Part shown: positions 5,575 to 46,700 of the stretch, piece by piece
Numbering within the stretch: the first letter of the stretch is position 1
Layout of the letters: each line of letters begins with the position of its first letter
Virus record (IMG/VR): IMGVR_UViG_3300037245_002365
Length of the DNA stretch: 64,000 bases
Origin: a virus
Taxonomy: Duplodnaviria; Heunggongvirae; Uroviricota; Caudoviricetes
Strand: one strand, 5' to 3'
The notes under the pieces: generated by a model
Seen by the model: only the letters and a program-made list of their open reading frames with translations
Database searches by the model: none
What the model was told of the DNA's origin: nothing
Position numbers and translations under genes: made by a program

Positions 5575-5728
5575 CTAAACTTGTAATCCCGGTTCGAGTC
5601 CGGGTAAGGGTACAAAAATAGGAAAAATAAAATGGACGTTTCATCAGCACTCGTATGTGTAATGCTATGGATAGCATTCATAACGATCGTAATGTTGGTA
5701 ATACCAACAACTAAACGGAAAGGTTATA

Positions 5729-10380: not shown

Positions 10381-10386
10381 CAAAAT

Positions 10387-10463
10387 ACTCACATAACTCA
10401 GTCTGGTAGAGTGCAACGCTGATAACGTTGTGGCCGGTGGTTCGAATCCATCTGTGAGTACCA
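10387..10463 (+). tRNA. tRNA-Ile(GAU), CCA encoded
   Basis: caacg-ctGATaa-cgttg; actcaca/tgtgagt + aCCA. Confidence 0.95.
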
Positions 10464-20165: not shown

Positions 20166-21200
20166 ATGACACATAATTACGCTATCTTTATAGGAAGGTT
20201 TCAACCTTTCCATAATGGACATCTCAAAGTAGTTATTGAAGCATTGAAAATAGCCTCAAAACTATTAATATTTGTAGGTAGCCCAAACCGTGCACGTACT
20301 ATCAAAGACCCATGGACTTACAAAGAGCGGGCTATGCAAATAACCGCAGCACTTTTGGACTTGGATGAAAATATCTTTGATAGAGTCAGAATAGTACCTA
20401 TAAAAGATATTATGTATGACAATAAAGAGTGGTTAAGCAGACTAGAAAATCAAGTTGACCTTGTTGCTGATATAGGAACATCAAAAGTATTAGTCGGGCA
20501 TGACAAGGACGAGAGTTCTTGGTATCTCAAACATTTTCCAACTTGGAAAACCCATGAGGTCGAGAACTTTGATAATATTGACGCAATAAAAATAAGAGAC
20601 TTCTTATTTCATAATGCCCTCAATTGGGAAAAACTGGTACCACCAGTTAATAAGTCTCTTCTTCAAGCCAACGCCAAAAAAGAATGGTTTCGTATATTAA
20701 GTGATGAAAATGAAGAAGTACGTAACTACAAAGATGAATGGAGTGAATCTCCTTATCCACCAACATTAGTTACCGCTGATTCCATAGTCGAATTTAATGA
20801 TAAAGTACTTATTGTTAAAAGAGGCGGAAGCATAGGTAATGGTAAGTTTGCACTTCCTGGGGGCTTTGTTGATGGAAACGAGTTGCTGCTTAATACAGCA
20901 CTTCGTGAACTTTTTGAAGAGACCTCTGTAAATGTCAGCAGTGAGCAACTAATAAATCATTTAGATAGTGTGCATGTTTATGATCATCCATACCGTTCGG
21001 TTCTTGGAAGAGTTATAACTCATGTACATCATTTTTCATTAGTTGGTCTTGAGTCGGATGGAAAAGATGATCTCGAAGTAAGACCGGGGGACGACGCTAT
21101 AGAGTGTGGTTGGTATCCACTGAATGAAATCAGAGATACCTTTGAACCTCTAATGTTTGATGATCATTATTACATCCTTAAACAAACGTTTGGGTGGTAA
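20166..21200 (+). CDS. Bifunctional NMN/NaMN adenylyltransferase - Nudix (ADP-ribose pyrophosphatase), NadM-Nudix type
   Basis: FIGRFQPFHNGH, VGHDKD.SSWYL..FP, ALPGGFVD.NE....ALRELFEET Nudix box, GDDA. Confidence 0.92.
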   Translation: MTHNYAIFIGRFQPFHNGHLKVVIEALKIASKLLIFVGSPNRARTIKDPWTYKERAMQITAALLDLDENIFDRVRIVPIKDIMYDNKEWLSRLENQVDLVADIGTSKVLVGHDKDESSWYLKHFPTWKTHEVENFDNIDAIKIRDFLFHNALNWEKLVPPVNKSLLQANAKKEWFRILSDENEEVRNYKDEWSESPYPPTLVTADSIVEFNDKVLIVKRGGSIGNGKFALPGGFVDGNELLLNTALRELFEETSVNVSSEQLINHLDSVHVYDHPYRSVLGRVITHVHHFSLVGLESDGKDDLEVRPGDDAIECGWYPLNEIRDTFEPLMFDDHYYILKQTFGW

Positions 21201-21201
21201 T

Positions 21202-21822
21202 ATGTTTACTAGCGGAACAGTATTTGAGGAAATAGGTGATTTACACCAATTATCTGACGATGTAATAAAAAATGAACCAATGTTAGACGCAGCAAGCAGG
21301 GCTTTCGTATTAAAGTACGGAGGCCCTGTGGTCAAAAACTTTTTAAAGGCTCTGCCCGAAGACTGGATTGACACACCAATCATAGTTGATACCAGGGTTC
21401 AGTACCTGAAGCCTGGAATGTACCCAAAAGTACCCGGCTGGCATTTAACAGACGTGCCTCGCACGTCTAAGTATGGACAACCTGAAGTTCTTGAGCCACG
21501 TTACAAAAGTGAGCACGTAATTTGTGTTACAGGGGCAACGTCTTTTCCAGAATTTTTGGTACAAGAAGTAAACATAGAGTTACCACCTTACAGTATAAAT
21601 ATTTATGATTCGTTCGACGAACAATTAAACTCTCTTGACGACAAGAGAGTTCAAATAGCTATGGATGGTCGTATATACAGATATGATTGGAATACAGTAT
21701 GTAGAAGCGTCCCTGCCAACGCAAGCGGGTGGAGACTGTATTTACACGCCAGTAGATACACCGAGAGAGATATTATAAATAATACTAAGAAGCAAGTACA
21801 AGTTTATTTGCCAATTAAATAA
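21202..21822 (+). CDS. Hypothetical protein, possibly a degenerate 2OG-Fe(II) oxygenase-like fold
   Basis: VDTRV..L.PG.YP..PGWH..DVPR motif; metal ligands look altered. Confidence 0.35.
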   Translation: MFTSGTVFEEIGDLHQLSDDVIKNEPMLDAASRAFVLKYGGPVVKNFLKALPEDWIDTPIIVDTRVQYLKPGMYPKVPGWHLTDVPRTSKYGQPEVLEPRYKSEHVICVTGATSFPEFLVQEVNIELPPYSINIYDSFDEQLNSLDDKRVQIAMDGRIYRYDWNTVCRSVPANASGWRLYLHASRYTERDIINNTKKQVQVYLPIK

Positions 21823-21836
21823 CGGATAAAAGAAAG

Positions 21837-22883
21837 ATGCAGTTTACTAAATATAGTGGCATTGAGAATTCATACAGAGAGAAATTTTTACAATTCATTC
21901 AGTATAGAGGTTTGGCTGATCCAGCAATTCTTTGGCACGCTACAGAAAAGGTTCACGGAGCAAACTTTGCTCTATACTACGATGGTGAAACGCTAGAAGC
22001 GGCAAAACGTAGTGGCTTCATTAGAGGCCAAGAAATAGAAAACTTCTTTCATTCTGATGTTATTATTGATGATATTAGAGATAGAATTATCGAATTAGCT
22101 AACGAGGTACTCGCTGACAACGAAGGTGTTGTTACGGTTGCAGTATGTGGAGAACTGTTTGGTGGGATTTACCCACACAAGGACGTTCCAAACAATAACG
22201 CTGCGAAAAAAGTACAAAAGGAAGTTTTTTATAGCCCTAATTTACATTTTTATGGATTTGACATCAGACTGTTTACAGAAGATGGCGAGTCTACATTTAT
22301 GGAACTGAACAAGGCATATGCCTTGTTTGAAAAATACGATATTTTTTACTCAATGCCGAAACTTTCTGGCACTTTAAAAGAGTGTTTAGAATGTGGCTGT
22401 GAGTTTCAGACAACAATCCCAGCGAGACTCGGACTGCCTGAAATAGAGGACAACATCTGCGAAGGTCTTGTTCTGTCACCAAACTTACCAATGTTCCTGC
22501 CAAGCGGATCAAGAGTTATTCTTAAGAATAAGAATGCGAAACACTCTGAGAAAGCTAGCGGGAAAAGCGGTGAAAAGAAAGAACTAGTACAAATCTCAAT
22601 GAGTGACGAAGGCAAAGCAATTTACGAAGAGCTTGAAGCCTGTGTCACAGAAAATAGGTTACGCAATGTGTTATCACATATTGGCGAAGTAACCTTCAGA
22701 GATTTTGGCAAAATTCTTGGTGCCTTCTCACAAGACGTTAGAGAAGAAATTTTAAAAGATAAAAAAGAAGAATACGATGCTCTGGAGAAACCAGAGCAAA
22801 AGATCATCAACAAATGGGTTAATGGTAAATGCTCTGAATTAATCAGAGATAACTTAGCAAATATTGTTGATGGCATGTTTTAA
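21837..22883 (+). CDS. RNA ligase, Rnl2 family
   Basis: YSGIENSY, EKVHGANF (motif I), GELFGG, FYGFDI, EGLVL, LKNKN. Confidence 0.88.
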   Translation: MQFTKYSGIENSYREKFLQFIQYRGLADPAILWHATEKVHGANFALYYDGETLEAAKRSGFIRGQEIENFFHSDVIIDDIRDRIIELANEVLADNEGVVTVAVCGELFGGIYPHKDVPNNNAAKKVQKEVFYSPNLHFYGFDIRLFTEDGESTFMELNKAYALFEKYDIFYSMPKLSGTLKECLECGCEFQTTIPARLGLPEIEDNICEGLVLSPNLPMFLPSGSRVILKNKNAKHSEKASGKSGEKKELVQISMSDEGKAIYEELEACVTENRLRNVLSHIGEVTFRDFGKILGAFSQDVREEILKDKKEEYDALEKPEQKIINKWVNGKCSELIRDNLANIVDGMF

Positions 22884-22900
22884 CTAAAAGGACAAGGATA

Positions 22901-23185
22901 ATGTACGCGTATAGATACAAACACTATAGGAGTAACCACGAAAGGTTCACAGATTTATTAGATGACCTAGCAGCCACTGGTGCCACACTTCCAAATAAAA
23001 TTCAAGCAATAACTGTTTGTGTTATGGAAGAAGTAGGTACTCAGCGTCAGCTTGGTGTAGGAGCTGCTTTCTGCAGCGATAAAGATCAGTTTAGCAAGCG
23101 AAAAGGACGGCAACTAGCCAGAGATAGAGCTATGCATAACAGAGCATTTCGAGAGATGGTTGCAGAAACAACCGAAAATGAATAA
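22901..23185 (+). CDS. Hypothetical phage protein
   Basis: G.AFCS.KDQFSKR.GR.LA..RA motif. Confidence 0.6.
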   Translation: MYAYRYKHYRSNHERFTDLLDDLAATGATLPNKIQAITVCVMEEVGTQRQLGVGAAFCSDKDQFSKRKGRQLARDRAMHNRAFREMVAETTENE

Positions 23186-24107
23186 ACTTTATATATATTC
23201 TGGTATACCAGCTAGCGGCAAAAGTACCGCAGCAATAAAATTGCAAAATACACAGCGTGGAAAGTTGAAAAGAGTAAATAGGGATTCCCTTAGACTCATG
23301 CTCGATGCGAATGAATGGTCGCCAAAAAACGAGAAACTCGTTAAATCGACCAGAGATTTTATAATCGAGCAAAGCCTCAAAAGAGGTTATGATGTCGTCT
23401 GTGATGACACCAACTTGAGCGCGAAAAATAATAATGGTCTTCTTGCGATAGCGAGGAGAGTAGGGGATATACAAGTTATAAACAAGTTCTTCCCCATCGA
23501 TCTCAAAACCGCTCTTAAGCGGAATGAAGATCGTGAAGATAAAGTAGGTAAAGACGTAGTTACAAATTTCTATAACAAGTACATTAAAGGTGGAAAATTT
23601 AAACCATTTGACACCCAATACTTCCCAATAGTTGTGAATACGTCTGACACTTTATTGCCATATGATCCCGATTTGCCAGACTGTATCATCTGTGATATAG
23701 ACGGCACTTTAGCACATATGACGGACAGAAGTCCGTATGACGGAGAAGCGTGTGCATCTGATGTATTAGATATGGCGGTATCAAATGTACTGCAAACATA
23801 CAAGATGGCATATGCTGATTTGACAGAGGAACTTAGACCAAAGATATTTTTATTCTCTGGTCGTAACGGTGAGTCTGAACCACAAACGCGGAATTGGCTG
23901 AAAGCCAACCATGTTCCGTTCGATGAATTGCATATGAGGAAGCCAGGAGATATGAGAAAAGACAGCGTCATTAAAGGTGAACTGCTTGATAAACATATTA
24001 TTGGTAAATATAATGTGATATTTTGTCTAGATGATAGAGACCAAATGATACATTATTACCGTGATAAGGGATTAAAGGTTTTTCAAGTTGCTTATGGCGA
24101 CTTTTAG
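23178..24107 (+). CDS. Polynucleotide 5'-kinase/3'-phosphatase (T4 PseT-like)
   Basis: GIPASGKST, VNRDSLR, DDTN, then HAD DIDGT, FSGR, DDR.Q. Confidence 0.92.
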   Translation: MNKLYIYSGIPASGKSTAAIKLQNTQRGKLKRVNRDSLRLMLDANEWSPKNEKLVKSTRDFIIEQSLKRGYDVVCDDTNLSAKNNNGLLAIARRVGDIQVINKFFPIDLKTALKRNEDREDKVGKDVVTNFYNKYIKGGKFKPFDTQYFPIVVNTSDTLLPYDPDLPDCIICDIDGTLAHMTDRSPYDGEACASDVLDMAVSNVLQTYKMAYADLTEELRPKIFLFSGRNGESEPQTRNWLKANHVPFDELHMRKPGDMRKDSVIKGELLDKHIIGKYNVIFCLDDRDQMIHYYRDKGLKVFQVAYGDF

Positions 24108-24157
24108 CCAATAAATATTTTACTTGACTATCATCTAAACAAACCATATATTCAAAT

Positions 24158-24853
24158 ATGAATGATAAACAAAAAGATGATATTAGAAAATATAATTCAG
24201 AAGGACACACCAATAGGGACATTGCCAGAAGACTTGGAGTGCATCATAACACTATTGCATATCAAATGAAAAAAATGGGGATATCTTCACCATTCTGTAA
24301 TCAACCAATTGATTTAGTTGGCGAGGATAAAGCCCGTTGTAGTAAGTGTAAAGAAATAAAAAATATAGATGAGTTCCAATTTGGTAGAAAAGGACAAAAA
24401 TATGAGTATAAGTTTTCATATTGCAATAAATGCCGAAAAACCCAAACATATAAAGCTTTAAATCAAAGCATTAAACAGTTTTTAAGAGACAAGTTTACTC
24501 GATTAAAAGCAAGAGCTAAAAAAAATAATATAGAAATCACAGTAGATGCTCAATATTTATTTGATTTGTATGACATACAAAACGGCTTATGTTTCTATAC
24601 TAATAGAGAAATGAAATGGGGTGTAGGTAAAGGGCGGCAAAAAAACCAAACTATTTCAATTGATAAAGTTATTCCCGTGTTAGGGTACATACCTGGGAAT
24701 ATTGTTCTTTGTGTAAATCAAGTTAATACAGTTAAAAACAACTTAACCCTAGAAGAAATAGAACAATGGTTACCGCCTTGGTATGAAAAGATAAAGAATC
24801 TTCCAGAGTTTGAACTATTAAAAGAGGCAAGCAATAATGAGAATGATAGCTAA
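24158..24853 (+). CDS. HTH plus Zn-finger homing-endonuclease-like protein, leaderless
   Basis: N-terminal HTH, CSKC...CNKC, Q.G.C.YT, SIDK..P..GY.PGNIVLC...N; TTGACT(24124)-17-TATATT(24147), 5 nt to ATG. Confidence 0.7.
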   Translation: MNDKQKDDIRKYNSEGHTNRDIARRLGVHHNTIAYQMKKMGISSPFCNQPIDLVGEDKARCSKCKEIKNIDEFQFGRKGQKYEYKFSYCNKCRKTQTYKALNQSIKQFLRDKFTRLKARAKKNNIEITVDAQYLFDLYDIQNGLCFYTNREMKWGVGKGRQKNQTISIDKVIPVLGYIPGNIVLCVNQVNTVKNNLTLEEIEQWLPPWYEKIKNLPEFELLKEASNNENDS

Positions 24854-25802
24854 AATATTGTTTGGGTCCCGCTTATATGGAACAAGCACGCCAGAATCGG
24901 ATACAGACTATAAAGCGATCTATTTACCTAGTATAGAAGATTGTATTCTACAAAAAGTAAAAAGATCAATAAACGAAGACACTAATAAAACCAGCGAACG
25001 TAATACTAAAGAAGATACTGACTTTGAGACTTGGTCACTACAGTACTTTTTAAAAATGGGTTTTGTTGGTGAAACGGCAATCTTAGATTTGATACATGCT
25101 CCAGATTCCTCCATTATTATATCTTCTCCTGAGTGGGAATTTATAAGGAAGAATCGAGCACGATTTTATTCAAAGAACGCAAGATCATATATTGGGTACG
25201 TTCGTAAGCAAGCCGCAAAATATGGGGTTAAAGGCTCAAGATTAGAAGAGGGTGAAAAAGTCCTCGCTTTTCTAAAAAACAATGAACCCTATATCAAACT
25301 AGCTGAACTCTGGGATGATTTGCCAACAGGTGAGCATATTAAAAAATATGACAATGAGGCAATTCAGGCAGATGACAAGCGAATTTACGACGTGTGTGGC
25401 ATCAAAATGATGGCTACACAAAAAGTAAGTTATATAGAAGGCTTGACTAACTTCGTAGAACGATATGGTCACAGAGCAAAATTAGCAAGAGATAACGAGG
25501 GGATCGATTGGAAAGCTGTTTCGCATGCATATAGGGCAAGCTATCAGTTGAAGGAAATCTATGAAACAGGAGATTTGATCTACCCCTTGAAGGACGCAGA
25601 GTTTCTTTTAAAGATGAAACTTGGAGGATTCCATTATAAAGATGATGGAATTGGAGAAAGATTAGACGAGCTAGTATCCGAGATGGAAGCACTAGCCGAC
25701 GCCAGTCCGTACCCAGACGAAGCCGATATGGACTTCTGGTATGACTGGTTATTACAATTATATGTGCCACTTAAGAGCAAAAAGCGCTGGTACATATTTT
25801 AA
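24837..25802 (+). CDS. Pol-beta superfamily nucleotidyltransferase
   Basis: LFGSRLYGTSTPESDTDY, QAAKYG.KG.R, DWKA.SHA.R. Confidence 0.8.
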   Translation: MRMIAKILFGSRLYGTSTPESDTDYKAIYLPSIEDCILQKVKRSINEDTNKTSERNTKEDTDFETWSLQYFLKMGFVGETAILDLIHAPDSSIIISSPEWEFIRKNRARFYSKNARSYIGYVRKQAAKYGVKGSRLEEGEKVLAFLKNNEPYIKLAELWDDLPTGEHIKKYDNEAIQADDKRIYDVCGIKMMATQKVSYIEGLTNFVERYGHRAKLARDNEGIDWKAVSHAYRASYQLKEIYETGDLIYPLKDAEFLLKMKLGGFHYKDDGIGERLDELVSEMEALADASPYPDEADMDFWYDWLLQLYVPLKSKKRWYIF

Positions 25803-25834
25803 ACAAAAACAAAAACAAGGAAATAATATATATT

Positions 25835-26185
25835 ATGAGAGTTACACATAACGAGGTAAAGACCTTCCCATCAGCACCGCAAACAATCACAGAAACAGAC
25901 GATACTTATGTTATCGAAGTTTCGGTAGCCGGTTATCAGCAAGAAGACATCTCCGTAGATGTTAAAGCAACCGAGCTACGGGTTAGCGGTAAACAACGTA
26001 AAGACGTTGCTAAGGGTGCTTTCACTCCTGGATTCACAAATACCTATGGTATTGACCCAGAAAATCCAGACATGGAAGTTGCAAATGCAGACGGCCGTTC
26101 TCTTTCACTAGAAAATGGTATTCTGACATTGGTTATGCCTAAACACGCTAGCTGTGTTGCTGAATCTATCGCATTTGATGCATAA
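25835..26185 (+). CDS. Hsp20/alpha-crystallin small heat-shock protein
   Basis: ETDD.Y.IE...AGY...DI.V, L...G, LENGILTL.MPK. Confidence 0.85.
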   Translation: MRVTHNEVKTFPSAPQTITETDDTYVIEVSVAGYQQEDISVDVKATELRVSGKQRKDVAKGAFTPGFTNTYGIDPENPDMEVANADGRSLSLENGILTLVMPKHASCVAESIAFDA

Positions 26186-26200
26186 ATTCGGTTAAGAATA

Positions 26201-26240
26201 TAGGACGGGCAGGCATCCATATGGGTGCCTGTCTTCTTAC
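26201..26240 (+). terminator. Intrinsic terminator
   Basis: ggcaggcatcc/gggtgcctgtc stem followed by ttctt. Confidence 0.65.
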
Positions 26241-26244
26241 TTTT

Positions 26245-26751
26245 ATGGCTATAATATCATTAATAGCAACCATAGACTCCGAGCGCGGAATAAGTAAAGA
26301 TGGAAAACCACCATGGGGATTACCCCAAACGATGGCAGGGATAAGAGACTTTGTCGTTGGCCAATCAATATTAATGGGTAGAAAAACTTACGAACTCTTC
26401 GGCGCTATTCCGGCATGTCGAAACTTTGTGTTATGTAGCAATGGTTTTTACCTTGCAACAGATGCAACAATTATTACATCGCCAGACCAAATTACTGATT
26501 TAATTGGTACTGATGACGATACAGAGATTTTTATTATCGGTGGTGCGACGCTGTACGCCCAAGCGATAGAAATGGCTGACAAACTATATTTAAATTGTAT
26601 AAATGGTACTTTCGATGCTGATCTATTCTTTCCTCAGATTAAGAGGGATGATTGGAGAACAGTAGAAAACATAGAGTGCCCAGCAAAAAATGAAGCAAAC
26701 TTCAGCAACACCTATATGACACTAGTTCATAATAGAGTGGATTTTATTTAA
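26245..26751 (+). CDS. Dihydrofolate reductase-like protein (divergent)
   Basis: GI.KDGK.PW, MGRKTYE, RNFVL, IIGGA.LY.Q, AD.FFP; start likely ATG 26245. Confidence 0.8.
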   Translation: MAIISLIATIDSERGISKDGKPPWGLPQTMAGIRDFVVGQSILMGRKTYELFGAIPACRNFVLCSNGFYLATDATIITSPDQITDLIGTDDDTEIFIIGGATLYAQAIEMADKLYLNCINGTFDADLFFPQIKRDDWRTVENIECPAKNEANFSNTYMTLVHNRVDFI

Positions 26752-26776
26752 TACAGCAAAATTGTAAAGAAAACAA

Positions 26777-27226
26777 ATGTTAACAGGTCCAGAAAAAGGC
26801 AAATTAGATACACTACAAAAAGTTCTTAACCTTATAACCTCCTATAGTAAACCTATACTTGGAGAAGGTGAGCGTTTTGCAGTAATACATGCAGACACTA
26901 ACAGTAAAAGTTCTACAAAGAATTTAATAGGCATTTACACAACAGAAAGGGCGGCTATTTTTATAGCAAGTATATATAGGCGTTACGAGGGTTTATCAGA
27001 CCCGCCTATTATCAATAGAACTACCAACGAATGTTACCCTGTAACATCTGGTAACGTCGAATTGTTTGTAGACAAGTTAGAAAAAGAACTGAATATTTTA
27101 GTGGAGAAAAGTAAACAGGTGGAGGTTGAACACAAGTATGGCAAAGAGAATAATAGTGGTAGAGGGTCTTCCAGGAAGCGGAAGGACTACTCTAATAGCG
27201 GAGTACCTAGAACAACACGACGATGA
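26777..27226 (+). CDS. Hypothetical protein
   Basis: 149-aa ORF. Confidence 0.5.
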   Translation: MLTGPEKGKLDTLQKVLNLITSYSKPILGEGERFAVIHADTNSKSSTKNLIGIYTTERAAIFIASIYRRYEGLSDPPIINRTTNECYPVTSGNVELFVDKLEKELNILVEKSKQVEVEHKYGKENNSGRGSSRKRKDYSNSGVPRTTRR

Positions 27227-27545
27227 GTTTGGCGACGCAACTCACATAGACATTGATACATACTTGAAGTATAAATCAGTGACTAAGGAATCCATAGAGA
27301 AGGCACAAGAAAAGATGTTACGAGAATGTAACAGACATATTAAGGCTGAAACTGATTGGATAATTCTTGAAACGGTAGTAAATTGGTTGGATAAGAAAAT
27401 AGAGACAATTGCCAAAGAGAATGGGTATGCCTATTCAAAAGAAATATTGGTCTCCATCTCCACAACGACAGAAGCTATGGCCAAAAGGTCTCGCACAAAA
27501 ATCTCACCCAAAGAGATAGAAACTTTAAAGTCGATAAAGCTTTAA
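27138..27545 (+). CDS. Divergent P-loop kinase-like protein
   Basis: IIVVEGLPGSGRTT. Confidence 0.6.
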   Translation: MAKRIIVVEGLPGSGRTTLIAEYLEQHDDEFGDATHIDIDTYLKYKSVTKESIEKAQEKMLRECNRHIKAETDWIILETVVNWLDKKIETIAKENGYAYSKEILVSISTTTEAMAKRSRTKISPKEIETLKSIKL

Positions 27546-27572: not shown

Positions 27573-27810
27573 TCATTTCGGAGCACTGGGATTAGGTTCT
27601 TAAGCCCGATTTGGTATGATTATTATTTTAACTGAGCGATTTAAAAAGTCGTTACTGGCATCACCGCCGGTCCCAACTGAAGGCTACGCCTCACTTGGAA
27701 ACGACACCCTAATTACGCGTAATGACTACAAATGACATTTCGGGCTAGGGGGTCCTTAATCAGGAGTTGACAAGGTTTGCAAACTTTGTGGTGGGTTCGA
27801 TTCCCACAAA
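27573..27810 (+). ncRNA. Structured leader/ncRNA ending in a tRNA T-arm-like hairpin
   Basis: agcccga/tcgggct and gattagg/ccttaatc long-range stems; gtggg-ttcgatt-cccac; follows TGGTATAAGAA at 27557. Confidence 0.5.
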
Positions 27811-27859: not shown

Positions 27860-28618
27860 ATGGCAAAAGGCAAATTTCATGAGTTACTAGCGGTAGTCAA
27901 TGACCGGGTATCTCAATTCACAAAAATTTCGGAAGAGGCTAAGTCCACCTTCCAAAAGAAAGATGCGCACTTCGACGGACAAGTTCGTACGTATCAACCA
28001 TTATTCGAAGACGGTGTGAAATTACCACCAGAGAGCAGAAAAGTTGTTACAACTGTAGCACAAAAGCTCGGCTTCGTACGCAAGATCGCTGTAACAGCGA
28101 TTGACGCTGTAGTTAGTAAGGAAGAGACAAATTCCTCTGGCGCAGCAAACGCAGAATTGACAGTAAAAGGTCAATCACTAGGCAACTTCAGCGCGACCGC
28201 ACTATTGTCGCTCGAAAACAATTTTACGAAGATTCGTAACATGTACAATGCTATCCCAACGAGGGATGCAGACAAAGCCTGGGATGCAGACCCTGAGTCT
28301 GACGCAGACATTTACCGCACCGAAACAGTCGAGACCACGCGTGTCGAGAGAATTCGGAAACCAATTACATTGCATGCGGGCAATGAGCACCACGCACCAC
28401 AGGTACAACTGTCTGAGGAACCAACCGCTGTTGGTACTTGGAGTGTTTACCAGCTATCTGGCAAACTAACGTCAGGACAAAAAGCAGAGCTATTGTCCAA
28501 TATTGACGATGTCCTAGCGGCTATCAAGCGCGCTCGTGCCAGAGCAAATAGTGTAGAAGCCAAGCAAGTTAAGGTGGCAAACTCACTGTTTGATATTATT
28601 CACGGCGACGTGGTATAA
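27860..28618 (+). CDS. Conserved coiled-coil protein (DUF7873-like)
   Basis: F.GQ.RTYQP..EDG..LPPE..KV, A.DAV..KE.TN, H.PQV.L..E...VG.W....LSG...K.ELL; resemblance recalled, not searched. Confidence 0.55.
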   Translation: MAKGKFHELLAVVNDRVSQFTKISEEAKSTFQKKDAHFDGQVRTYQPLFEDGVKLPPESRKVVTTVAQKLGFVRKIAVTAIDAVVSKEETNSSGAANAELTVKGQSLGNFSATALLSLENNFTKIRNMYNAIPTRDADKAWDADPESDADIYRTETVETTRVERIRKPITLHAGNEHHAPQVQLSEEPTAVGTWSVYQLSGKLTSGQKAELLSNIDDVLAAIKRARARANSVEAKQVKVANSLFDIIHGDVV

Positions 28619-28694
28619 AAAGATTTATTAGAGAAGACTCAGTATTAAATTCAGTTTTAGTATTAAACGCCGCCCCTTAATGGGCTCGGCAATT

Positions 28695-28945
28695 TAGTCT
28701 TTCGCTCTATAGTCTTATAAGTCCTAGTTAGCATCTAGAAAAAGTAAACGGATTTTATCATACACTTTCGCGCGCGAGTTCGAACCTCGTCTCGGCCTCA
28801 AATTTAAACCCCGTTACCTCACAGTGCTTGCGAGCCCGAGGTAACGTATACTTATGGCCGGGTAGCTCAGTGGTAGAGCAGAAAGATTAGCCAGATATAA
28901 ATCGCGATTGAAAAACTAAGAGCAATAGGCGACAAATACAAAGAT
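28695..28945 (+). ncRNA. Circularly permuted tRNA-like domain at the tip of a long stem
   Basis: 3' half ctttc-gcgc-gcgag/ttcgaac/ctcgt-ctcggcc-t (28765..28798) precedes 5' half ggccggg-ta-gctc/agtggta/gagc-a-gaaag (28856..28885); all stems complementary. Confidence 0.7.
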
Positions 28946-29134
28946 AACGAGGGCAATGCCCTTTATCGATTACTTAATGTGAATCGGGCCCGGACAACAC
29001 AGGAATAGGTTGACGGGCCACTAAATATTATACCGGGGTGAGGTAAACTGACTTCGCCCCGGCTATAATTAAGTGGAATCGAAAGATAAAAAATTTTTAC
29101 TTGACATCTCCACTTAAGTAACATATATTTATAT

Positions 29135-29614
29135 ATGGATACTTTAATTGAAAAAAAATGTGAATTTTGTGAGAACACTTTTCTCGCAAAAGCTAAAGAG
29201 AGCACACGCGGTGGAGCACGCTTTTGTTCTAGATCTTGCTCTGGAAGCCATTCAAATAAAATAAGACCATATGTTGATCTTTTATGCAAAAAATGTGGAA
29301 AAAGTTTTTCCACAAAATGCAAACAAGCATTATATTGTTCTAAAGAATGTTCTTACAGAAAAAGCACTAGCTATAGATATAGAAACCACCTTAATGCAAA
29401 AATTAAAAAAATAATTAGCACAAGTATTTGTTTTAATTGTGGTTGGGATAAAACTACTTGTGATGTACACCATGTAATACCTCGTAAAAAAGGCGGTACT
29501 GATGAACTTCATAATTTAATAATTGTATGTCCTAATTGTCATAGATTAGCTGATAGGCATTTATTAAATTTAACAACAATTCCAACAGTTGCTAATAAAA
29601 CATTAAACACTTAG
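29135..29614 (+). CDS. HNH endonuclease with Zn-ribbon repeats, leaderless; stop overlaps first base of tmRNA
   Basis: CFNCGW..CDVHHVIPRKKGGTDE..NLIIVCPNCH; TTGACA(29101)-17-TATATT(29124), 5 nt to ATG. Confidence 0.9.
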   Translation: MDTLIEKKCEFCENTFLAKAKESTRGGARFCSRSCSGSHSNKIRPYVDLLCKKCGKSFSTKCKQALYCSKECSYRKSTSYRYRNHLNAKIKKIISTSICFNCGWDKTTCDVHHVIPRKKGGTDELHNLIIVCPNCHRLADRHLLNLTTIPTVANKTLNT

Positions 29615-30011
29615 GGCCTAAACTGGATTCGACGGATTGAGATGAAGATAAGTAAGCAAGCAGACATTGAGCAGATGTCTTAAAAAAGTTCAAAAAACAC
29701 AAATGCTAAAAAAGCAAATATAGTACCTTTCGAGTTACTAGCTTCTCAGAATTCTACAGGTGCCATGCCTGTCGCATTCGCTGCGTAAGTAGAGAAGTAA
29801 TCAAGCCCGCCACCGGGGGTTAATCCGGTATGGACAGTCTTGTACCTTCTCGCAAGTACAGGATTAAATTAGCGGGACTGCACAACGGATGCCCTCGGGC
29901 AAAATGATCACAGACTTGGCTGTTGTGCTAAGACGCCTCGGGTTTTGATCTAAGCTTGTAGAAAACGAATTGGATTTCTTTTCGGACGCGGCTTCGATGC
30001 CGCTAGGTCCA
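29614..30011 (+). ncRNA. ssrA: tmRNA
   Basis: gggccta/taggtcc acceptor with G3-U70, 5' ggattcgac, 3' ggacgcggcttcgatgccgc; tag frame 29705..29788 AKKANIVPFELLASQNSTGAMPVAFAA*. Confidence 0.92.
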
Positions 30012-30012
30012 C

Positions 30013-30048
30013 AAAAAAAGGTTATAGTAAACACTATAGCCTTTTTTT
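30013..30048 (+). terminator. Intrinsic (bidirectional-looking) terminator
   Basis: A-run, ggttatag/ctatagcc stem, T-run. Confidence 0.8.
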
Positions 30049-30224: not shown

Positions 30225-31550
30225 ATGGAGCGCACAACCCTTAAGCAACCAGCAAGGGATGGTAAAATAAAAATAATGCACATCTGGACAGAAGAAAACG
30301 TTGTCTGGAGAGAGTGGGGTTATGAGGGCATGAAAATGCAAAAATCTCCAGCCGTCACTAAAGGCAGAAACATTGGGCGCTCCAATGAAACTACCCCTGT
30401 AGAACAGGCCGAATTAGAGGCTGCAAGAATAGTAGCCAACGAGTTAACCAGGGGTTATAGTCATGAAGGTACAGATAGGGAAGACACAGAAGACGCTTCA
30501 AATGCTAAACCAGAAGATATGATCTTTAGTTTAGATAGTTTGCCTCGTAGTCTTGCTCCAAGCAAACCTATAAATAAACCTCCCAAAGATTGGGAAGCTG
30601 GAAATGAAATATTTTGTGCTGAACGCAAAAATAACGGTGTAAACTTACTGTGTTTAACAACTCCCGACGGCGTTGTAAAAACATACAGCCGTGGCATGAA
30701 AGAGCTTACTAATATAGTAGTTAATATAACTCCTATTCAGGACTTTAATGCTATCGAATTTCCACATGGATCATTAAGTAGTTATGAATTTATATATTAC
30801 AACGCTGATGGCAAAGAGATGCCAAAAGATTTACGTGGCATATTAAATGAAAAGACTACACCAGAGAAAGCAACGGCACGCTATAACAAATTAATTGAAG
30901 CAGGCGGGTCATTTGCGATTAAGGTCTTCGATATATTAATTCTTAACGGCGATAGAACTATTGCTGGTAGAGAATATAACGATAGGCGACCACTTTTACA
31001 AGAATATATTTTTGATGCGCACCCTGAGTATGCATCCGATTATTACGATGTCCTTACAGAGGAAATCATCGCTGAAGCAAAAGCTGCTGGCTGGGAAGGT
31101 TTTGTATTAAGATATAAGACTGGCGATCTCAGTAAAGTTGAATATACATTAAATGGTAAGCCACGCAGATGTGGAGCATATAAATATGTCTTTACCTTCT
31201 TGGACGATTTTATCATCGACAAAACAACGGTCGGTGAAAAAGGTAGATTACTTGGTTTACCTTCAAAATTCCACCTAAGCCAATATGATCAAAACGAAGA
31301 TTTGGTTGATTGCGGATGGTGTGGACCAGGAAAGCTTACTACCAATGATCTCAAAGAGCTCGTTGAAACACTGGAATTAGAAGACCTCAATGACAAAATT
31401 GGGGACACTATAGATATAACACAAATGTCTGTCGCAATAGAACATAGGGGTAGACAAGAAGATACAAATAGTCTACAGTTTCCTGTGCTCACAGAATTGA
31501 GACCAGACAAACCAACTGAAGAGTGTATTTTAGAGAATGACACTAATTAA
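30225..31550 (+). CDS. ATP-dependent DNA ligase with N-terminal WGR-like region
   Basis: KGRNIGRSNETT..EQA, ERKNNG (motif I Lys), FDIL, EGFVLR, FPV..ELRPDK. Confidence 0.82.
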   Translation: MERTTLKQPARDGKIKIMHIWTEENVVWREWGYEGMKMQKSPAVTKGRNIGRSNETTPVEQAELEAARIVANELTRGYSHEGTDREDTEDASNAKPEDMIFSLDSLPRSLAPSKPINKPPKDWEAGNEIFCAERKNNGVNLLCLTTPDGVVKTYSRGMKELTNIVVNITPIQDFNAIEFPHGSLSSYEFIYYNADGKEMPKDLRGILNEKTTPEKATARYNKLIEAGGSFAIKVFDILILNGDRTIAGREYNDRRPLLQEYIFDAHPEYASDYYDVLTEEIIAEAKAAGWEGFVLRYKTGDLSKVEYTLNGKPRRCGAYKYVFTFLDDFIIDKTTVGEKGRLLGLPSKFHLSQYDQNEDLVDCGWCGPGKLTTNDLKELVETLELEDLNDKIGDTIDITQMSVAIEHRGRQEDTNSLQFPVLTELRPDKPTEECILENDTN

Positions 31551-32196
31551 CGATAGAGAAAAGAAAAAGAAGGATGCGTCAGAAATTGAAATTTTGGATC
31601 AACTAAATCCAGAGGAAGGTTTTAGAATCAGAGCAGTAAATGTAGACCTATTTGATTTACGTTTAAGAGAGATGGAGTTCGGGATAAACGTTGCTAAAAG
31701 AATAGTTTTTCTTGATGGTGGCATAGAACCCGCAACGTTGTTTCGATTAAAACAGCAATTAGATACTATTCTAGATACTTGCAATGAGGAAGACCCAATT
31801 TCAATATACATCAACACCTATGGTGGAGATGCACATGCGATGTTTGGGATTATAGACCTCATTAAAACTTATCCAGTAAAAATAAATACAACAGCCATGG
31901 GTGCTGCTATGTCAGCAGGCGCATGGATTTTAATGAGCGGAACTGGCATAAGAGCCATAACAAAAGGTTCTATAATAATGTTTCATGAAGTACAATCAAG
32001 TCATCATGGCCCCAGTACTAAAATTGAATCTACTGTAGAGCATTCACGCCTTTTACAGGATATGACAAGCGAACTTATATATGATAGAACTAATATAAGT
32101 AAAAAGGCTTGGATAGAGATGCTGAAAGATAAACAAGAAATATTTTTCAATGCAGACGAATGTCTCAAGTATGACATTGTAGACAAAATACTATAA
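31537..32196 (+). CDS. ClpP-like protease subunit
   Basis: IYINTYGG, G.AMSAGA, IMFHEV, F.ADECLKY.IVDKI. Confidence 0.85.
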   Translation: MTLINDREKKKKDASEIEILDQLNPEEGFRIRAVNVDLFDLRLREMEFGINVAKRIVFLDGGIEPATLFRLKQQLDTILDTCNEEDPISIYINTYGGDAHAMFGIIDLIKTYPVKINTTAMGAAMSAGAWILMSGTGIRAITKGSIIMFHEVQSSHHGPSTKIESTVEHSRLLQDMTSELIYDRTNISKKAWIEMLKDKQEIFFNADECLKYDIVDKIL

Positions 32197-40365: not shown

Positions 40366-40770
40366 CTATACCTTACTTTTTGCTTTTAAGTACTGATAAA
40401 TTTGCTCATCAAATATTAATGGTTTTTTGGAACGGGGCACCGTTGCAGGCACAAATCTAGGATTTTTAATTCCCACTGCCTTTTGTTTTTTAGCGGCATA
40501 GCCTAATGCTTCTCGCTCTACAGTACGCCCCTTCTCTACTATTTGTTTTGCTTTGCTTCGTTCTGAAGCTGCTCTTACTCTAGTAGATTTAGCGATAGAA
40601 CCTAAGGACGTCTCTTTTGGAACTGCTGTAAACTTGCTTTTAAATCCTTTCTGAATGTAATCAAAATATTCACCAGCAGCATAGTCTCCTCTATGTACTT
40701 TACTTGGTGATGTACCATAAATTCTCTTAACTAACTCTTTTCCAATTCTTCTTAGTGCTGTCTTATCCAT
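40366..40770 (-). CDS. Hypothetical basic protein
   Basis: 134-aa ORF coupled to RNAP gene. Confidence 0.55.
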   Translation of the reverse strand: MDKTALRRIGKELVKRIYGTSPSKVHRGDYAAGEYFDYIQKGFKSKFTAVPKETSLGSIAKSTRVRAASERSKAKQIVEKGRTVEREALGYAAKKQKAVGIKNPRFVPATVPRSKKPLIFDEQIYQYLKAKSKV

Positions 40771-43700
40771 TAATAAAATGCTCCTTCGTCCTCATCAATT
40801 GCTTTACCAAAGTTATCTCCATATAGGTATGCTGGAATCGGATCTTTTCCTTTTAAGTTTGCGTACTGCCCTCTGGCTGCGCCAGTTGTTAGGGCCATTT
40901 TTAATCTGTTAGAAGTGATTCTAGTGAACCAGTCTTCTGAATCAGTGTTCAATGTTTCAATAGATTTGAAGTATGGATTATACTTTATAAGTTCCAAACC
41001 TTCTTTCTTTCTATCTTTGTTTATGTCGTCAATATAACTAATAGTTGTTTTATCGCCACGTAAGAATTTGCTGCCCCTTGGTGCGCTGGTGATTTGTGCA
41101 TTGTCACTCAATCCACGTATAACCGTTTCAAACGTCTTCCTATAGAATTTATTCTGGAATATAGCTGAGGCTTCATCAACTAGATAGTTTTGTGCATCTA
41201 AGTGACTCTTCAGTGCGCTTAATTCCTGAGGTTTAATAACACCATCAGATAAAGGATCACCGGGACTAACCTTATCACCAATAGAAACAATAGGTTTTCT
41301 ACCTGCTGGTATGACAAAGTCTTTGTCATTCTTTGTGCCATAACCTTCTATCCTTAGAGTGAACCCGCCCGTTAAGTTCTTATTGATTTTTTTGACAATT
41401 CCTTTCACTGTAGATAAGGTTGCCTTACCACTTAATTTCTCAGGTACTTTCAGAATCTGAGTAAGTCTTGGGAAACCTGCAGTAATTCCACCACCGCCAC
41501 CTAATGTAGTTCCTCCAGTATGGAATGTCTGCATCTGTAGCTGAGTACTTCTTTCAGTTAGGGCCTGTCCTTCAAGTATTCCAACATTAGTTCCTACAGG
41601 AGCCATCTCTCCGTTTGGAAGTAATCCATAACATAGTTGACATACACCATTTGGTGCTGTACAAGTAAGAGGGCTTCTAACTTCTATTACATCTACTTTT
41701 ACTTTTTTAAGTTTAAGTAATGCTTGAGTATCAATAAGATCATTTCTTTTGATAACGCCTGGAATAGTTTCTAATGCGAATCTATCCATTACGTTTTTAT
41801 CATTAACTGGGAATTCAATGCCTTTGCGTGTTCCACAATCATTCTCTGTAATAATCAATCTACGTGTAACCGTTAGCAGCGATTTATTTAATGCACCAGT
41901 ATCCTGTGTATTAACTGATCTATCCACAGTACCGCTTCGTACACCATAAAGTGTAGTAAAGTAACCTGGAGTATCAAGACCTTCTGCATATGACTTGGTA
42001 ACAGGAATATCAATTGAATCACCATGGACGTCTTTCAAAACTCCAGGCATCGAAAGAACCTGTCTGATTGAATCCGCCTTGGTGAAAGATTTAGCTTTAA
42101 GCATTTTATACATATTGTTTGTTCCGCTTTGTGCCTTATCTTGTGCTCTTTGAACCTCTTTGGTTAATTCATTTAAAGCATCTATTTTTGCTTTACCTTT
42201 TAATTTGTTTATTTCTGGCAACTTGCTTTTAAGAAGATCATATTTATATGATCTATCGATTGCAAGATCTCTTAATGAGAATGTGTTACCAGACATAGAG
42301 GCATATGTAGAACCTAAATCCTTCCAAGAGTTAATAACCTCAGAGAAATAATTTTGGTACTTCATACCAATTTCAGTAAGTAAGTCTTTAACAACTTTTC
42401 CATCTAACATTCTTTTGTAATCACGAAGCTCCTTCGGGAGCTTGGCATTAATCATATACTGTCCAATAGTCATAGGCTTGTCTCCAAGCATAAATTGATG
42501 CGTCCATGGCATTTTTGCCTTTCTAGCCGCCTCAATAGTAGAAAATCTCTTATCAGTTTTCTTGTCAATTAAACTAAGTTTATGTAAACCATATAAGTAC
42601 TCTTGACTAATTTGTGGCATTAAAGCGTTATCGCCGTGCTTAAATAATATCTTATCCGGCATCATTTGCTTTGCTTCTTCAACGGCTGCATAACCAATTG
42701 GTGCCATGATTGACATCGTGTCACCGTCAAGGTCAGCGTTGAACCCGTTGAATACTACTGGGTTTAAACGAATAGATTTACCACTAACTAAAACAGGATT
42801 AAATGCCTGTATAGAGTGCTTATGTAATGAGGGCGCTCTGTTCAGAATTACCGGTCTGGACTTCATAACATTCGCCAACGAGTTCATAGCCATAGGCGAT
42901 TCGTCTTTATATTCTCTAAGCGCATTACTTGCTTTTAAACCACTTTCCTTCAAATCTTTGATAACAAACGGCTTCATCATTTTGTATGCCATGTCTTTAG
43001 GAATACCAACTTGATTGATACCTAATGATGGCTCTACAGTAATTGTGCTACGAGCACTAATATCTTGTCTTTTTGCCCACGCTGCGTTTTGAATCAGCGC
43101 TCGTTTACCAGAAATCTCTTGTAAAATACCTTTGTATTTTTCACCAGAGTAATTTACTGGGTCAGTAAATCCTTGTAATGCCCTAACGCTATTATATAAT
43201 GCGTTTGTTGCTTCTATCTGTTCCTTTTCTGTAAGAGATTTTTTAGCTTTCTTCAAAGAAATATTGATAGCACCAACATCTCTATAGTGCTTATTGATGT
43301 CACTAACCATTAAGTCACCAGTTTGCAATGGATAAATAGGTCTGAATACTGGTGGCAACACAGGAAGATTCTTCATAGTATAAGCTTCTTCCGGTTTAAG
43401 GCCCAGTTCAGTCAGCGTTTCTAAGTATCTAATACGCCTGTTTAACTTATTAACATTGGTAGGTGGAGCAGTTCTTAACTCCTCTTTTAATTCTTTAGTG
43501 TCTTTTTTAACATTAAGTTTTTTAAGTGCTGACAAAATAGCTTCAGAACCTGTGACTCCATCTATACTATAATTACCAGCCAAAGTATCCATATATGATT
43601 TCTCTGTTAGATTTAACACTTTCATGATGGCATCAGCGTACATCGGATTAGGAATACGGTTAGTTAATTTAATGTGTGACCAATGTGTACCACGAGTACC

Positions 43701-46700
43701 ACCAGTAACTGTCACATCAAACAGACCATTCTTTCTTGCTCCAAGGTTCTTACCAACTAACAATGCTGCTGGATCAGTAATTTCACCGTTAGACATATCT
43801 AAAGTTTCTTTATCAGTTAAAGGCATAATTCTTAATCTGTTACCTTCTTTCTTGACATTAACACCAGCACCTTTTAAGTAACCAAGCAATTTATCAAAAA
43901 CAAAGTTTTTATTAGTTGGTACAGGAGGTAAACCTAATTGTAAGTTTCTCCAGTATTCCTCATTCTCACGACCCTTAACATTTGTAATCTCATTAAGATT
44001 TGCCTTGGCTCCATGAGCTAGATACGAATACGTATCTAACACTCCAACTTTTTGTGCACCCTTACCTACTGGTAGATCGTCAATATCATAACTACCATAG
44101 CTGTGGACACCTTGTTTTTTCTTAATGATGTGACGTAATTTAATAAAATATTGATCACCAGTGAATATCTTTTCAGGGAACTCTTCACCATTCTTACCAT
44201 TTCTTAATACTTCGTCTGGTTCAAGACCTAACTTTTGCATCTTATCTAATATTTCTTTAGACATATCTTTATCAGGATCTTCAAAGTTATCTGTGATAAA
44301 AGTTTTACCTGTTTTTTTAGCTATTTTACTAGCAGCGGTTTCAAGTATCTGTCCAAGATTCATACGTGATGGAACACCATGAGGGTTAAGAATAATCTCT
44401 ACTGGTGTGCCGTCCTTTCTATGAGGAGCCTCTGAATCAGGAATAATTTTAGTAACGATAGATTTGTTTCCATATCTCGCACTAACTTTATCTCCTTCTT
44501 TGAATGGGTGTACAGATTTTATATAAATATCTATGTTTCTCCCAACTACCTGTACGTCCGTGACGATGCCGGGTTCGTCTTCATCCCATTCTGAAATCTT
44601 TTTATTATACTGACTAAACGTATGTTTATCCAGTTTCTTTAATGCACGATCTGTGTCGTCCATTTCCTTCTCAACTAAATACGCCGCAAGTATTTCTCCC
44701 GGAAGGAATTTTTGTCCAACTTTTGGAAGACCTTTTTCATCCAACTTGTTCAAATTGCTTGGACTAATATCATTAGGATACCAAGCGATAAATCTACTTT
44801 TATCCATAACACTAATTTTTGGACTAAAGAAGATATTAACTTTATGCATTGTCTGGTGAGACAGTTTCTTTGCTGCGCTCTCTGTAATAACGGCACCATC
44901 TTCATAGTTATAACCTTTCCATGGCATGTAAGCTACGGTTAAGTTTTTTCCCAAAGACAGGGTGCTGTCTTTGGTATAGTTATTGTCTGCAAGTTGTGTA
45001 TCTGTAGTAACTTTATCTCCCTCTTTTACTAGAGGAATTGAGTTAAGAAATCCATCTTGGTTCAGAGGAAAGTTTCTGTATAGACCCCTTTTAATCTCTT
45101 TGCCGTCAGGAGTCTTCATATATACGTAATCACTAGTTACTTTTGTAACTACTGCTTCTTTAATTTTTTTGCCATCGTCACCAATACCTAAAACTGGATT
45201 TAGATAACTACCGATGAACTTCTCATAAGTACCTTTGTCACTTCTTCTAGTTTGTACAAGCGGCTCTTCTCTGTCTACCAAAGACATAGCCTGTGTAATC
45301 ATTCGTGCGCCGGTTGATGCACGGTTACCCTGTGTGTTCTGTAAGAATGGAACAAGGTTAGTAGAGAATGAAAACATACTTTTTGGTGATCTAATATAAT
45401 AGTCTATTTTAGATGCATCTACTTTAACTAGTTTGCCCTTCTTCATGGCACTTACTTTATCTTTTTTTGCCTTAGGTTTACCATCAACCAGATCGTACTG
45501 ATCTGGATAACCAACGATAGCTTCAAAAAACTCAATAGGTTTAATATATGATTTCTCGCCTGTTTTAGATACCACAGGAGTAGCCATATCATTATCAAGT
45601 TTAATAACTTCAGAACCCAATCCTACGGTAACTCCAACTTTTCCTGACTCAGGAGTTGAAGTAGGATCTAAAAATCCTAAATGTGATGGCTGCACGTCTC
45701 TTGTCTCCATTGTGATGGAGTGCCTACTTTGGATACCGCCTGTACCCATTGGAGTAGTTCTACGCCAAGCCTCAACAATAGTAACTGGGTTAGTTTGTGG
45801 AGGAGTAGCTGAAAGATCGCCAGAGGTGAAAAACGTTTTAATAGGTTTACCAAATGTACTAGAGCCTAATATATCACCAACATTATTTTTTAGTTGCATT
45901 GTGCGGGCAAGTTTTCTCTCTATACCAATTTTTTGCTTATCTAAATGCGATACTAATAGATCATCAATAGCGTAAAGTCTCTTGAAAATAAGACTGTCAC
46001 GTTCATCGGGAACGTCGTTACCTTTATTGATCGCTAATAGTTTTTTGGAGGTTGACAAAAGAGCAGCCCCAGTAACACTTTCGAAACTTTCTCCCAATGT
46101 CATTTTTGTAGTATCTGGATCTACTTTAGTGTATTCAGTAAAATACTTTCTAAGACCTTCTTGAGCAGCGTCAAAATCTGCTGGCTCTTTATTGTAAACT
46201 TTTTTATAGATAGAGGTGATTTCAGAGACTTCTGTATTTAACGCACCCTTCTTGTTAACCTCTAATAGTCGGTGTCCCCATTCTTTCGCAATTTCGGAAT
46301 CTAAAACGCCCAATAGGTTTAATAGTGTCCATAAACGATATTTACGATTGTCCATAATCAGAACGAATAGCTGCGTTTCTGGATCAAGCATCATCTTAAA
46401 GTTGTAACCTTTTTCAAGGTTAAACTCACTTTCTAATTCACCATTTTTCTTAACCCTTGAATATATTCCAGATTTTCTACGTAATTGGTTTATAGTCTGG
46501 TACTCATTACCATCAATAATTGTAGTAAATCTATTTGTTATAGCAGGAATATTACCAAGTTTAGTTTTAGCTTTTTTACTTAAAACTTTTCCGGTTTCTG
46601 TGTCCGTAATAACCACATCACCATATATAGGATTCTGCCAAGACTTGCGTTGCATTTTAAATTTACGCTGTTTTGGGAAATCCCAGTCATCTAGGTTATC

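Follow-up and report, generated by a model that had tools for sequence, protein, structure and literature searches.

A circularly permuted, anticodon-less tRNA mimic conserved with DUF7873 in phages and bacteria

The window considered here, the whole 64,000-nucleotide stretch of a Caudoviricetes virus (IMG/VR record IMGVR_UViG_3300037245_002365), contains a gene of the DUF7873 family and, immediately 3' of it on the same strand, an RNA element in which the parts of a tRNA stand in permuted order (Table 1). A first-pass annotation, made by a model from the letters and their open reading frames (ORFs), had called the gene DUF7873-like, and its product does match Pfam family PF25283 over its full length (223 bits compared to a cut-off of 27, residues 5-248). 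The RNA element, which is conserved with DUF7873, is an L-shaped tRNA mimic that has no anticodon loop and in which a circularly permuted tRNA body (28765-28885, hereafter the head) is seated on a long interrupted stem. Among sequencing runs, searches listed one DNA data set with the window, from a marine sediment metagenome that is probably its source, and no RNA data set.

Each stem that the first-pass annotation had placed in the head was confirmed base for base in the sequence from 28500 to 29100. The same holds for the 57-nucleotide linker with its own 9-bp hairpin (which is a 38-nt insertion relative to L001, one of the related loci described below), for the order of the halves, which as in two-piece tmRNAs puts the T arm and the acceptor 3' strand before the acceptor 5' strand, for the lack of a G3-U70 pair (C3-G70 is found instead) and for the absence of an anticodon loop, which no member of the family has; the arm runs on into stem P2. 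It had also suggested an Infernal search; no Rfam family reaches its threshold at the element, and there is no call at the head whether curated thresholds or E<=10 are applied. The general tRNA model RF00005 likewise makes no call there, the tmRNA models, including the permuted ones, have no match within 28600-29100, and ARAGORN, which finds 10 tRNAs and a tmRNA in the window, calls none at the permuted head.

Table 1. Features of the DUF7873 gene and of the RNA that follows it, in window coordinates (R1, covariance model built from the heads of relatives; L001 and L045, related loci)
Feature	Position	Strand	Basis or remark
DUF7873 gene, 252 aa, proposed partner	27860..28618	+	Pfam PF25283, E 4.7e-66
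5' leader: repeated UCAGU/UUAGU words and UUAA-loop hairpin (28669-28690)	28630..28692	+	start approximate; near-identical in window, L001 and L045
5' motif UUUAGUCUUUCGCUCUAUAGUCUUAUAAGUCC, including 5' strands of P4 (28702-28710) and P3 (28713-28717)	28693..28724	+	conserved spacing
Stem P2, 5' strand GAUUUUAUC	28751..28759	+	pairs with 28894-28903, one bulge
3' half of head (anticodon-stem 3' strand to U73)	28765..28798	+	covariation, R1
Anticodon-stem 3' strand CUUUC	28765-28769	+	read in sequence
Variable loop, 4 nt	28770-28773	+	read in sequence
T arm GCGAG-UUCGAAC-CUCGU, loop UUCGAAC	28774-28790	+	read in sequence
Acceptor 3' strand CUCGGCC	28791-28797	+	read in sequence
U73, then CAA	28798 (CAA from 28799)	+	read in sequence
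Linker capping acceptor stem, 57 nt	28799-28855	+	CAA at start; C74 invariant in family
9-bp linker hairpin	28812-28820 with 28838-28846	+	read in sequence
5' half of head (acceptor 5' strand to anticodon-stem 5' strand)	28856..28885	+	covariation, R1
Acceptor 5' strand GGCCGGG	28856-28862	+	read in sequence
U8 A9	between acceptor 5' strand and D arm	+	read in sequence
D arm GCUC-AGUGGUA-GAGC (4-bp stem)	28865-28879	+	read in sequence
A26	between D arm and anticodon-stem 5' strand	+	read in sequence
Anticodon-stem 5' strand GAAAG	28881-28885	+	read in sequence
Basal stem, 3' side: internal loop AUUAGCCA 28886-28893; P2 28894-28903; P3 28917-28921; P4 28925-28932	28886..28932	+	
3' domain: hairpins 28943-28967, 28967-28986, 28987-29019 and terminal GC-rich hairpin 29033-29062, no U run	28943..29062	+	conserved with L001

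Scans of viral contigs with exact words or with a single protein were empty, and relatives were retrieved with an alignment query. A pattern scan finds the permuted arrangement 50-300 nt past the DUF7873 gene in almost every locus, with no ARAGORN tRNA overlapping it. When the heads of 30 relatives are aligned, 93.8% of cells are paired compared to 60% for shuffles and 34-49% for slid controls, and 20 of the 21 head pairs have changed on both sides. The T, acceptor and D helices were preselected by the regular expression used in the search, so the pairing support for these three helices is circular in this first set. The anticodon stem was not preselected, and it is paired in 75% with covariation in all five of its pairs; nor was the 15-48 Levitt pair, which is G-C in 26 heads and A-U in the other 4, with no mismatches. 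U8, A14, G18 and A21, again not preselected, are invariant, as are U54, U55, C56 and A58, while past the discriminator C74 (not preselected either) is present in 30/30, C75 in 18/30 and A76 in 22/30. For 43 additional sequences outside the seed of R1, with the alignment fitted to that model, 94.9% of cells are paired compared to 67% for shuffles. All four helices of the head and the tertiary 15-48 pair covary.

Applied to the window, R1 scores 28762-28887 at 70.3 bits (E 3.4e-18), and its second-best match in the 64 kb reaches 28 bits, at a tRNA junction. Across relatives the linker varies in length from 7 to 142 nt, and NCCA is encoded in 15 of the 32 b-type heads. The fold z-score of the region is -0.84, meaning that thermodynamics alone does not mark the element, and the cloverleaf-type model of the first-pass annotation has an energy of -42 to -53 kcal/mol compared to a minimum free energy (MFE) of -59.7 for an alternative fold. 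It is the conservation and covariation among relatives, not energy, that support the permuted head and lead us to regard the element as real.

The first-pass annotation had given the element 251 nt (28695-28945), which proves too short: the head appears to be the core of an RNA of roughly 440 nt, about 28630-29066. This span is drawn from a comparison of the window with L001 (protein 83% identical) and L045 (60%), where the sequence is conserved from just past the stop codon to about 29073, together with the near-consensus promoter of the next unit at 29101-29129. Several hairpins of the RNA carry compensatory changes among the three; the stem of the leader hairpin, for instance, is altered in L001 yet still paired, and a similar leader begins the stand-alone RNA units of Bernardetia described below. 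In most relatives with one head the 5' motif is found about 65-72 nt 5' of the T arm. We considered whether it might be a promoter and judged this unlikely, since its distance to the T arm is fixed across very distant phages.

The interrupted duplex by which the first-pass annotation had extended the arm is upheld across the family, where the basal duplex has a mean z of -1.8 and p<=0.05 in 17 of 39 cases, but is weak in the window alone (z -1.1). P4 (CGCU with GGCG) is retained in 4 of 5 near relatives, and P3, which is UCUUA/UAAGA in the window, reads GCUUC/GAAGC in L046, as judged by eye. P2 is retained with changed sequence in L046 (GUUUUUGC/GCAAAAAC), L002 (CGGUUUUG/CAAAAUCG) and L043 (CUUUGGG/CCCAAAG), so that across these loci, L001 and the window it covaries, again as judged by eye. 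When RNAalifold was run on the five near relatives it misaligned P2 and proposed a local hairpin instead, which we rejected because P2 persists in every one of the five in spite of their sequence differences. Immediately 3' of the anticodon stem most relatives have the word WUYAG. In the 3' domain two hairpins show compensatory changes relative to L001; in relatives the corresponding domain is an anticodon-arm-like hairpin followed by an intrinsic terminator, or a second permuted head (7 of 43 loci), or a whole tRNA. In this sample RNAs with one head, such as that of the window, outnumber those with two.

Two further observations concern the 5' part of the RNA. The motif UAGUCUUUCGCUCUAU (28694-28710) is nearly complementary to 28875-28892, which comprises the D-arm 3' strand, the anticodon-stem strand and AUUAG, and this is the pairing of the MFE fold. 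It is probably not conserved, since a change in the D stem of L001 lacks compensation in the motif; a structural switch between this pairing and the head may exist. Additionally, heptamers of the form YYAGRYU (UCAGGCU, UUAGACU) stand 5' of the head in two to five copies in L005, L007, L014, L019, L023-L030 and L033, with UCAGU and UUAGU at 28639-28665 as their counterpart in the window, and the word recurs directly 3' of the anticodon stem. The heptamer is 2.7-fold enriched over coding sequence. As a candidate for a repeated protein-binding site it has this enrichment only and is restricted to a subfamily, and we keep it as an observation.

The RNA and the DUF7873 gene travel together. Enough flank was available at 43 loci from phages, metagenomes and cultured phages, 14 of which lie outside the R1 seed; the proteins of the 43 go down to about 30% identity. 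Every one of these loci has an R1 match of at least 46 bits just 3' of the DUF7873 gene, which is the outcome of looking, as the first-pass annotation had proposed, for the same permuted T and D arms downstream of DUF7873 homologues. Clustering of the flanking ORFs across loci revealed no other recurrent neighbour family, and about one locus in three has canonical tRNAs within 2.5 kb. The carriers are jumbo phages, small actinophages and members of several bacterial phyla. Where gene and RNA are not adjacent, the RNA is found elsewhere in the genome, 75-150 kb off or on other contigs. In Bernardetia, for instance, the single DUF7873 gene closes with its own terminator and three tandem RNA units lie 135 kb away.

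We surveyed 81 genomes of the order Cytophagales with R1 at a cut-off of at least 60 bits. All 15 DUF7873-positive genomes have a match, compared to 4 of the 66 negative ones (Fisher p about 5e-13, with shared ancestry uncorrected). One of the four matches in negative genomes is a junction of tandem tRNAs, one is an RNA 1.4 kb from a TROVE gene and two are arrays that repeat about every 100 nt and are taken to be tRNA arrays; none of the 66 negative genomes has a convincing RNA.

The Bernardetia units have a composition of their own. Those of Bernardetia sp. (L110, 2738146-2741245) measure about 520 nt each and consist of leader, permuted head, normal-order tRNA and terminator, and similar units are present in L119. 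Their tRNAs score 44-67 bits with Rfam, and ARAGORN gives two of the three in Bernardetia abnormal anticodon loops (an 8-nt loop with 'cgta'; 'tc').

The DUF7873 family comprises 2463 clusters at 50% identity. An AlphaFold2 model of the window protein (pLDDT 84) consists of long helices and beta hairpins. With this model Foldseek finds no match in the PDB at E<=1e-3, VIA-align finds only helical bundles (best Z 7.9), and the AlphaFold DB and ESM Atlas return family members and uncharacterised proteins or generic helical bundles. PHROGs has no family for the protein, and a sequence profile search of the PDB gave no match. A side observation concerns the other end of the gene. About 60 nt 5' of its start stand two hairpins, a long one at 27771-27788 that resembles the variable arm of a class II tRNA and, after it, one like a T arm, GUGGG-UUCGAUU-CCCAC, at 27791-27807; both stay paired in L001 through compensatory changes, and no tRNA tool calls them. 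We considered the T-arm-like hairpin as the first half of a second head interrupted by the gene and rejected this, the arrangement being found in the window and L001 only, with no matching acceptor or D arm after it.

The topology of the head is that of YrlA (RF02553; PMC4201824; 10.1101/312249), as the first-pass annotation had pointed out. In both RNAs the 5' end is paired with the 3' end to make a stem, on which follow in order the variable loop, the T arm, the capped acceptor stem and the D arm; both lack an anticodon loop and keep the tertiary nucleotides of tRNA, including the covarying Levitt pair. Both also occur in phages, often in tandem copies and beside tRNA genes. With the YrlA of M. 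smegmatis the RNA further shares an acceptor stem of 7 bp and a sequence like NCCA; that YrlA, with its 7-bp stem, undergoes cleavage by RNase P and addition of CCA (PMC4201824). Against the heads of relatives, RF02553 aligns end to end with 24-38 bits, below its threshold of 69, and at E<=10 it finds nothing in the window. The 69-bit threshold is a poor discriminator in this case, because the Ro60-adjacent RNAs of Cytophagales too reach only 35-40 bits. R1 in turn detects the Ro60-adjacent RNAs at 48-64 bits and, since each of the two models scores both groups, the DUF7873-linked and Ro60-adjacent heads form one structural class. Where the first-pass annotation spoke of an uncharacterised tRNA-mimic RNA, it is thus right in that no Rfam family applies at threshold, and needs correcting in that the RNA is a variant of the YrlA class and not something unrelated. 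It differs from YrlA in the gene to which it is linked (DUF7873, not Ro60/TROVE), in its occurrence with DUF7873 in complete phage genomes that lack Ro60, and in being 3-4 times longer, with additional 5' and 3' domains. The window also seems to lack GNCGAAN0-1G, the YrlA motif on the 5' strand of the Ro60-binding stem; at the aligned place the window has UCGCUCUAUAG, and some relatives have CCCGAAGG or GCCGAAUAG, which are similar without being the motif itself.

The reading we favour, with a probability of roughly 0.55, is that the YrlA-class RNA of about 440 nt and DUF7873 as its cognate protein form a tRNA-mimic ribonucleoprotein that is independent of Ro60. On this proposal, which draws on comparison of sequences, the permuted, anticodon-less, L-shaped mimic stands on a long interrupted stem carrying conserved single-stranded and internal-loop motifs. 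DUF7873 would bind the stem side, at the 5' motif and the WUYAG internal loop, leaving the tRNA-like elbow and acceptor end to be offered to machinery that recognises tRNA. RNase P probably cuts at 28855/28856 and so opens the 7-bp acceptor stem, after which trimming of the linker and completion of the end to NCCA would leave an RNA in two pieces, as shown for M. smegmatis YrlA. The opening by RNase P is suggested by the 7-bp stem, the invariant C74, the CCA in about half of the heads, the unconstrained linker and the M. smegmatis precedent.

Several results weigh against this reading. The RNA adjoins the DUF7873 gene in only 28 of 59 bacterial loci, so that of the association with the upstream protein put forward by the first-pass annotation it is the presence in the same genome that is universal (15/15), not the adjacency, and the statistic for co-occurrence carries the shared ancestry of the genomes. 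The window itself has no encoded CCA (UCAA instead) and no canonical terminator, and its single-sequence fold favours an alternative pairing that disrupts the D arm. The structure and profile searches reveal no recognisable RNA-binding fold in DUF7873, and its pI is neutral (7.0; family median 6.9). Invariant residues of the types H, D, E, K and R are present as well, and they would be compatible with DUF7873 being an enzyme that has the RNA as its substrate and not its partner. The neighbourhood of RNA-repair genes described below is peculiar to the window phage and not conserved across loci. Lastly, TROVE is enriched among the DUF7873-positive genomes (10/15 compared to 9/66 negative ones, p 8e-5).

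This enrichment leads to the alternative that fares best, though we consider it unlikely, namely that the RNA is a true Ro60-dependent Y RNA, whose stem binds the Ro60/Rsr of the host, with DUF7873 as an effector tethered by the tRNA-like domain or as an accessory factor. The architecture is identical to that of YrlA, the Ro60-adjacent RNAs of Cytophagales score no better with RF02553, and R1 detects them too. Phage RHph_Y65 carries TROVE as well as the DUF7873/RNA pair, CCCGAAGG in the 5' motif of some relatives resembles GNCGAAN0-1G (PMC4201824), and the effector of YrlA is unknown (10.1101/312249). However, TROVE is absent from 5 of the 15 DUF7873-positive bacterial genomes and from the complete genomes of the phages Ziko, KpLz-2_45 and phiRSL1, each of which carries the pair; in the window, too, no TROVE is found among ORFs of at least 300 aa, in agreement with the first-pass annotation, which had seen no Ro60 gene. 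The window motif is GCUCUAUAG, not GNCGAA. Genomes with both TROVE and DUF7873 keep separate YrlA-like RNA loci, one by each protein. The enrichment of TROVE could reflect a functional link, or merely relatedness or genome size.

Slightly less probable is that the element acts in cis on the DUF7873 transcript, either because a cut by RNase P sets or protects the 3' end of the mRNA or because the protein regulates its own expression. The phage RNA does lie immediately 3' of the gene on the same strand. In the window, prediction places neither a terminator nor a good promoter between the two, and the determinants for RNase P are present. There are precedents in the 3' tRNA-like structures of plant RNA viruses and in the mascRNA of MALAT1, tRNA mimics on longer transcripts that are recognised by RNase P or the CCA-adding enzyme. 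These have the normal order and act in cis, whereas the RNA here is permuted and is also found as stand-alone genes: units separated from the gene by 75-150 kb or placed on other contigs, and tandem arrays with their own terminators. The separate terminator of the Bernardetia DUF7873 gene argues in the same direction. The tRNA-like structure of TYMV is among those discussed in connection with YrlA (10.1101/312249).

A similar comparison can be made with the two-piece tmRNAs of alpha- and beta-proteobacteria and cyanobacteria (RF01849, RF01850, RF04321), and one could see in the RNA a charged, two-piece tRNA-like molecule acting on the ribosome in the manner of a permuted tmRNA, with DUF7873 in the role of SmpB. 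In these tmRNAs as well the T arm and the acceptor 3' strand with CCA are encoded first, a variable segment intervenes and a long helix takes the place of the anticodon arm, and in the family described here NCCA is frequent, the acceptor has 7 bp and relatives have weak partial matches to beta_tmRNA (20-25 bits). We nevertheless regard this as improbable. The acceptor has C3-G70 in place of G3-U70, and acceptor stems and discriminators vary freely across the family, which means that no single synthetase identity is kept. The 4-bp D stem is complete, unlike that of tmRNA, pseudoknots are lacking, no permuted-tmRNA model matches, and no conserved tag frame was noticed, though no search was aimed at one. 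The phage moreover has a normal one-piece tmRNA of its own about 700 nt 3' of the RNA.

In the permuted tRNA genes of Cyanidioschyzon merolae the 3' half is likewise encoded before the 5' half, with a linker that can be removed by RNase P and tRNase Z, and real tRNAs result, the anticodon loop being formed by joining of the transcript ends. That the element is such a gene, maturing by circularisation and end processing, or else a decayed tRNA remnant or a chance match, is very improbable even though the order of the halves and the linker agree and the word after the anticodon stem is often like U33 plus a Leu-type anticodon (UAG, UAA, CAA), because no member has an anticodon loop, a covarying duplex continuing the arm instead, and because neither a remnant nor chance can account for conservation and covariation that extend to loci with proteins of no more than 30% identity.

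The surroundings of the pair in the window are rich in genes for RNA and nucleotide metabolism. RNA-repair genes encode an RNA ligase of the T4 Rnl2 type (Rnl2, 21837-22883), a polynucleotide kinase-phosphatase (PNKP, 23160-24107) and the nucleotidyltransferase RlaP (24837-25802). The island in which they lie (20166-27545) also contains a NMN adenylyltransferase-NUDIX protein (20166-21200), Hsp20 (25835-26185), DHFR (26221-26751) and a small P-loop kinase (27126-27545). On the other side of the pair, the one-piece tmRNA (Rfam 107.5 bits, tag AKKANIVPFELLASQNSTGAMPVAFAA, within 29135-30014) is directly preceded by an HNH endonuclease ORF (29135-29614), which is the unit served by the near-consensus promoter at 29101-29129. 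In the close relative L001 the tmRNA is present too, but another small ORF stands where the window has the HNH gene, which gives this gene the look of a mobile insertion. After the tmRNA follow an ATP-dependent ligase (30225-31550) and ClpP (31537-32196).

Elsewhere in the window R1 has weak matches at 10344-10420 and 5576-5672 (28 and 22 bits), which are T-arm-like hairpins outside the ARAGORN tRNAs, such as CCCGG-UUCGAGU-CCGGG just 5' of a tRNA-Ile, and these may be unannotated or degenerate tRNA-like elements of the tRNA cluster. Other genes of the window encode a fused beta/beta-prime multisubunit RNA polymerase of 2022 aa (40770-46838), a reverse transcriptase of 300 aa (47531-48433), a 995-aa ORF with a LAGLIDADG domain (52565-55552), a ligand-gated potassium-channel-like protein (8885-9907) and a nicotinate phosphoribosyltransferase (10815-11996).

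The tRNA cluster, Rnl2, PNKP, RlaP and the tmRNA provide the context from which we would read a role for the proposed ribonucleoprotein, most likely in the surveillance, repair or protection of tRNA or other RNA during infection. A more specific version, which we offer tentatively and as clearly less likely than the ribonucleoprotein itself, is that the complex is widespread and Ro60-independent, and that the two-piece NCCA mimic opened by RNase P serves as the handle by which DUF7873 reaches enzymes that process, repair or target tRNA; phages might thereby guard or restore their tRNA supply against host defences directed at tRNA.

A full-text search for DUF7873, PF25283 and this RNA found no paper in the literature that it covered, and no Rfam family describes them, which points to a pair undescribed in the literature and in Rfam. 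So far Y RNAs have been known solely in partnership with Ro60, and the function of their tRNA-like domain is open; here a mimic of the YrlA type goes with another protein family, one that is large and has no known fold. The pair occurs in cultured phages (phiRSL1, Klebsiella jumbo phages, Gordonia phage Ziko and Rhizobium phage RHph_Y65) and is hence directly testable. If gene and RNA do form a ribonucleoprotein, it would be a second, independent use of the permuted-tRNA scaffold and would give the first functional handle on DUF7873, and the pair may reveal a new layer of the conflict between phages and their hosts that is centred on tRNA.
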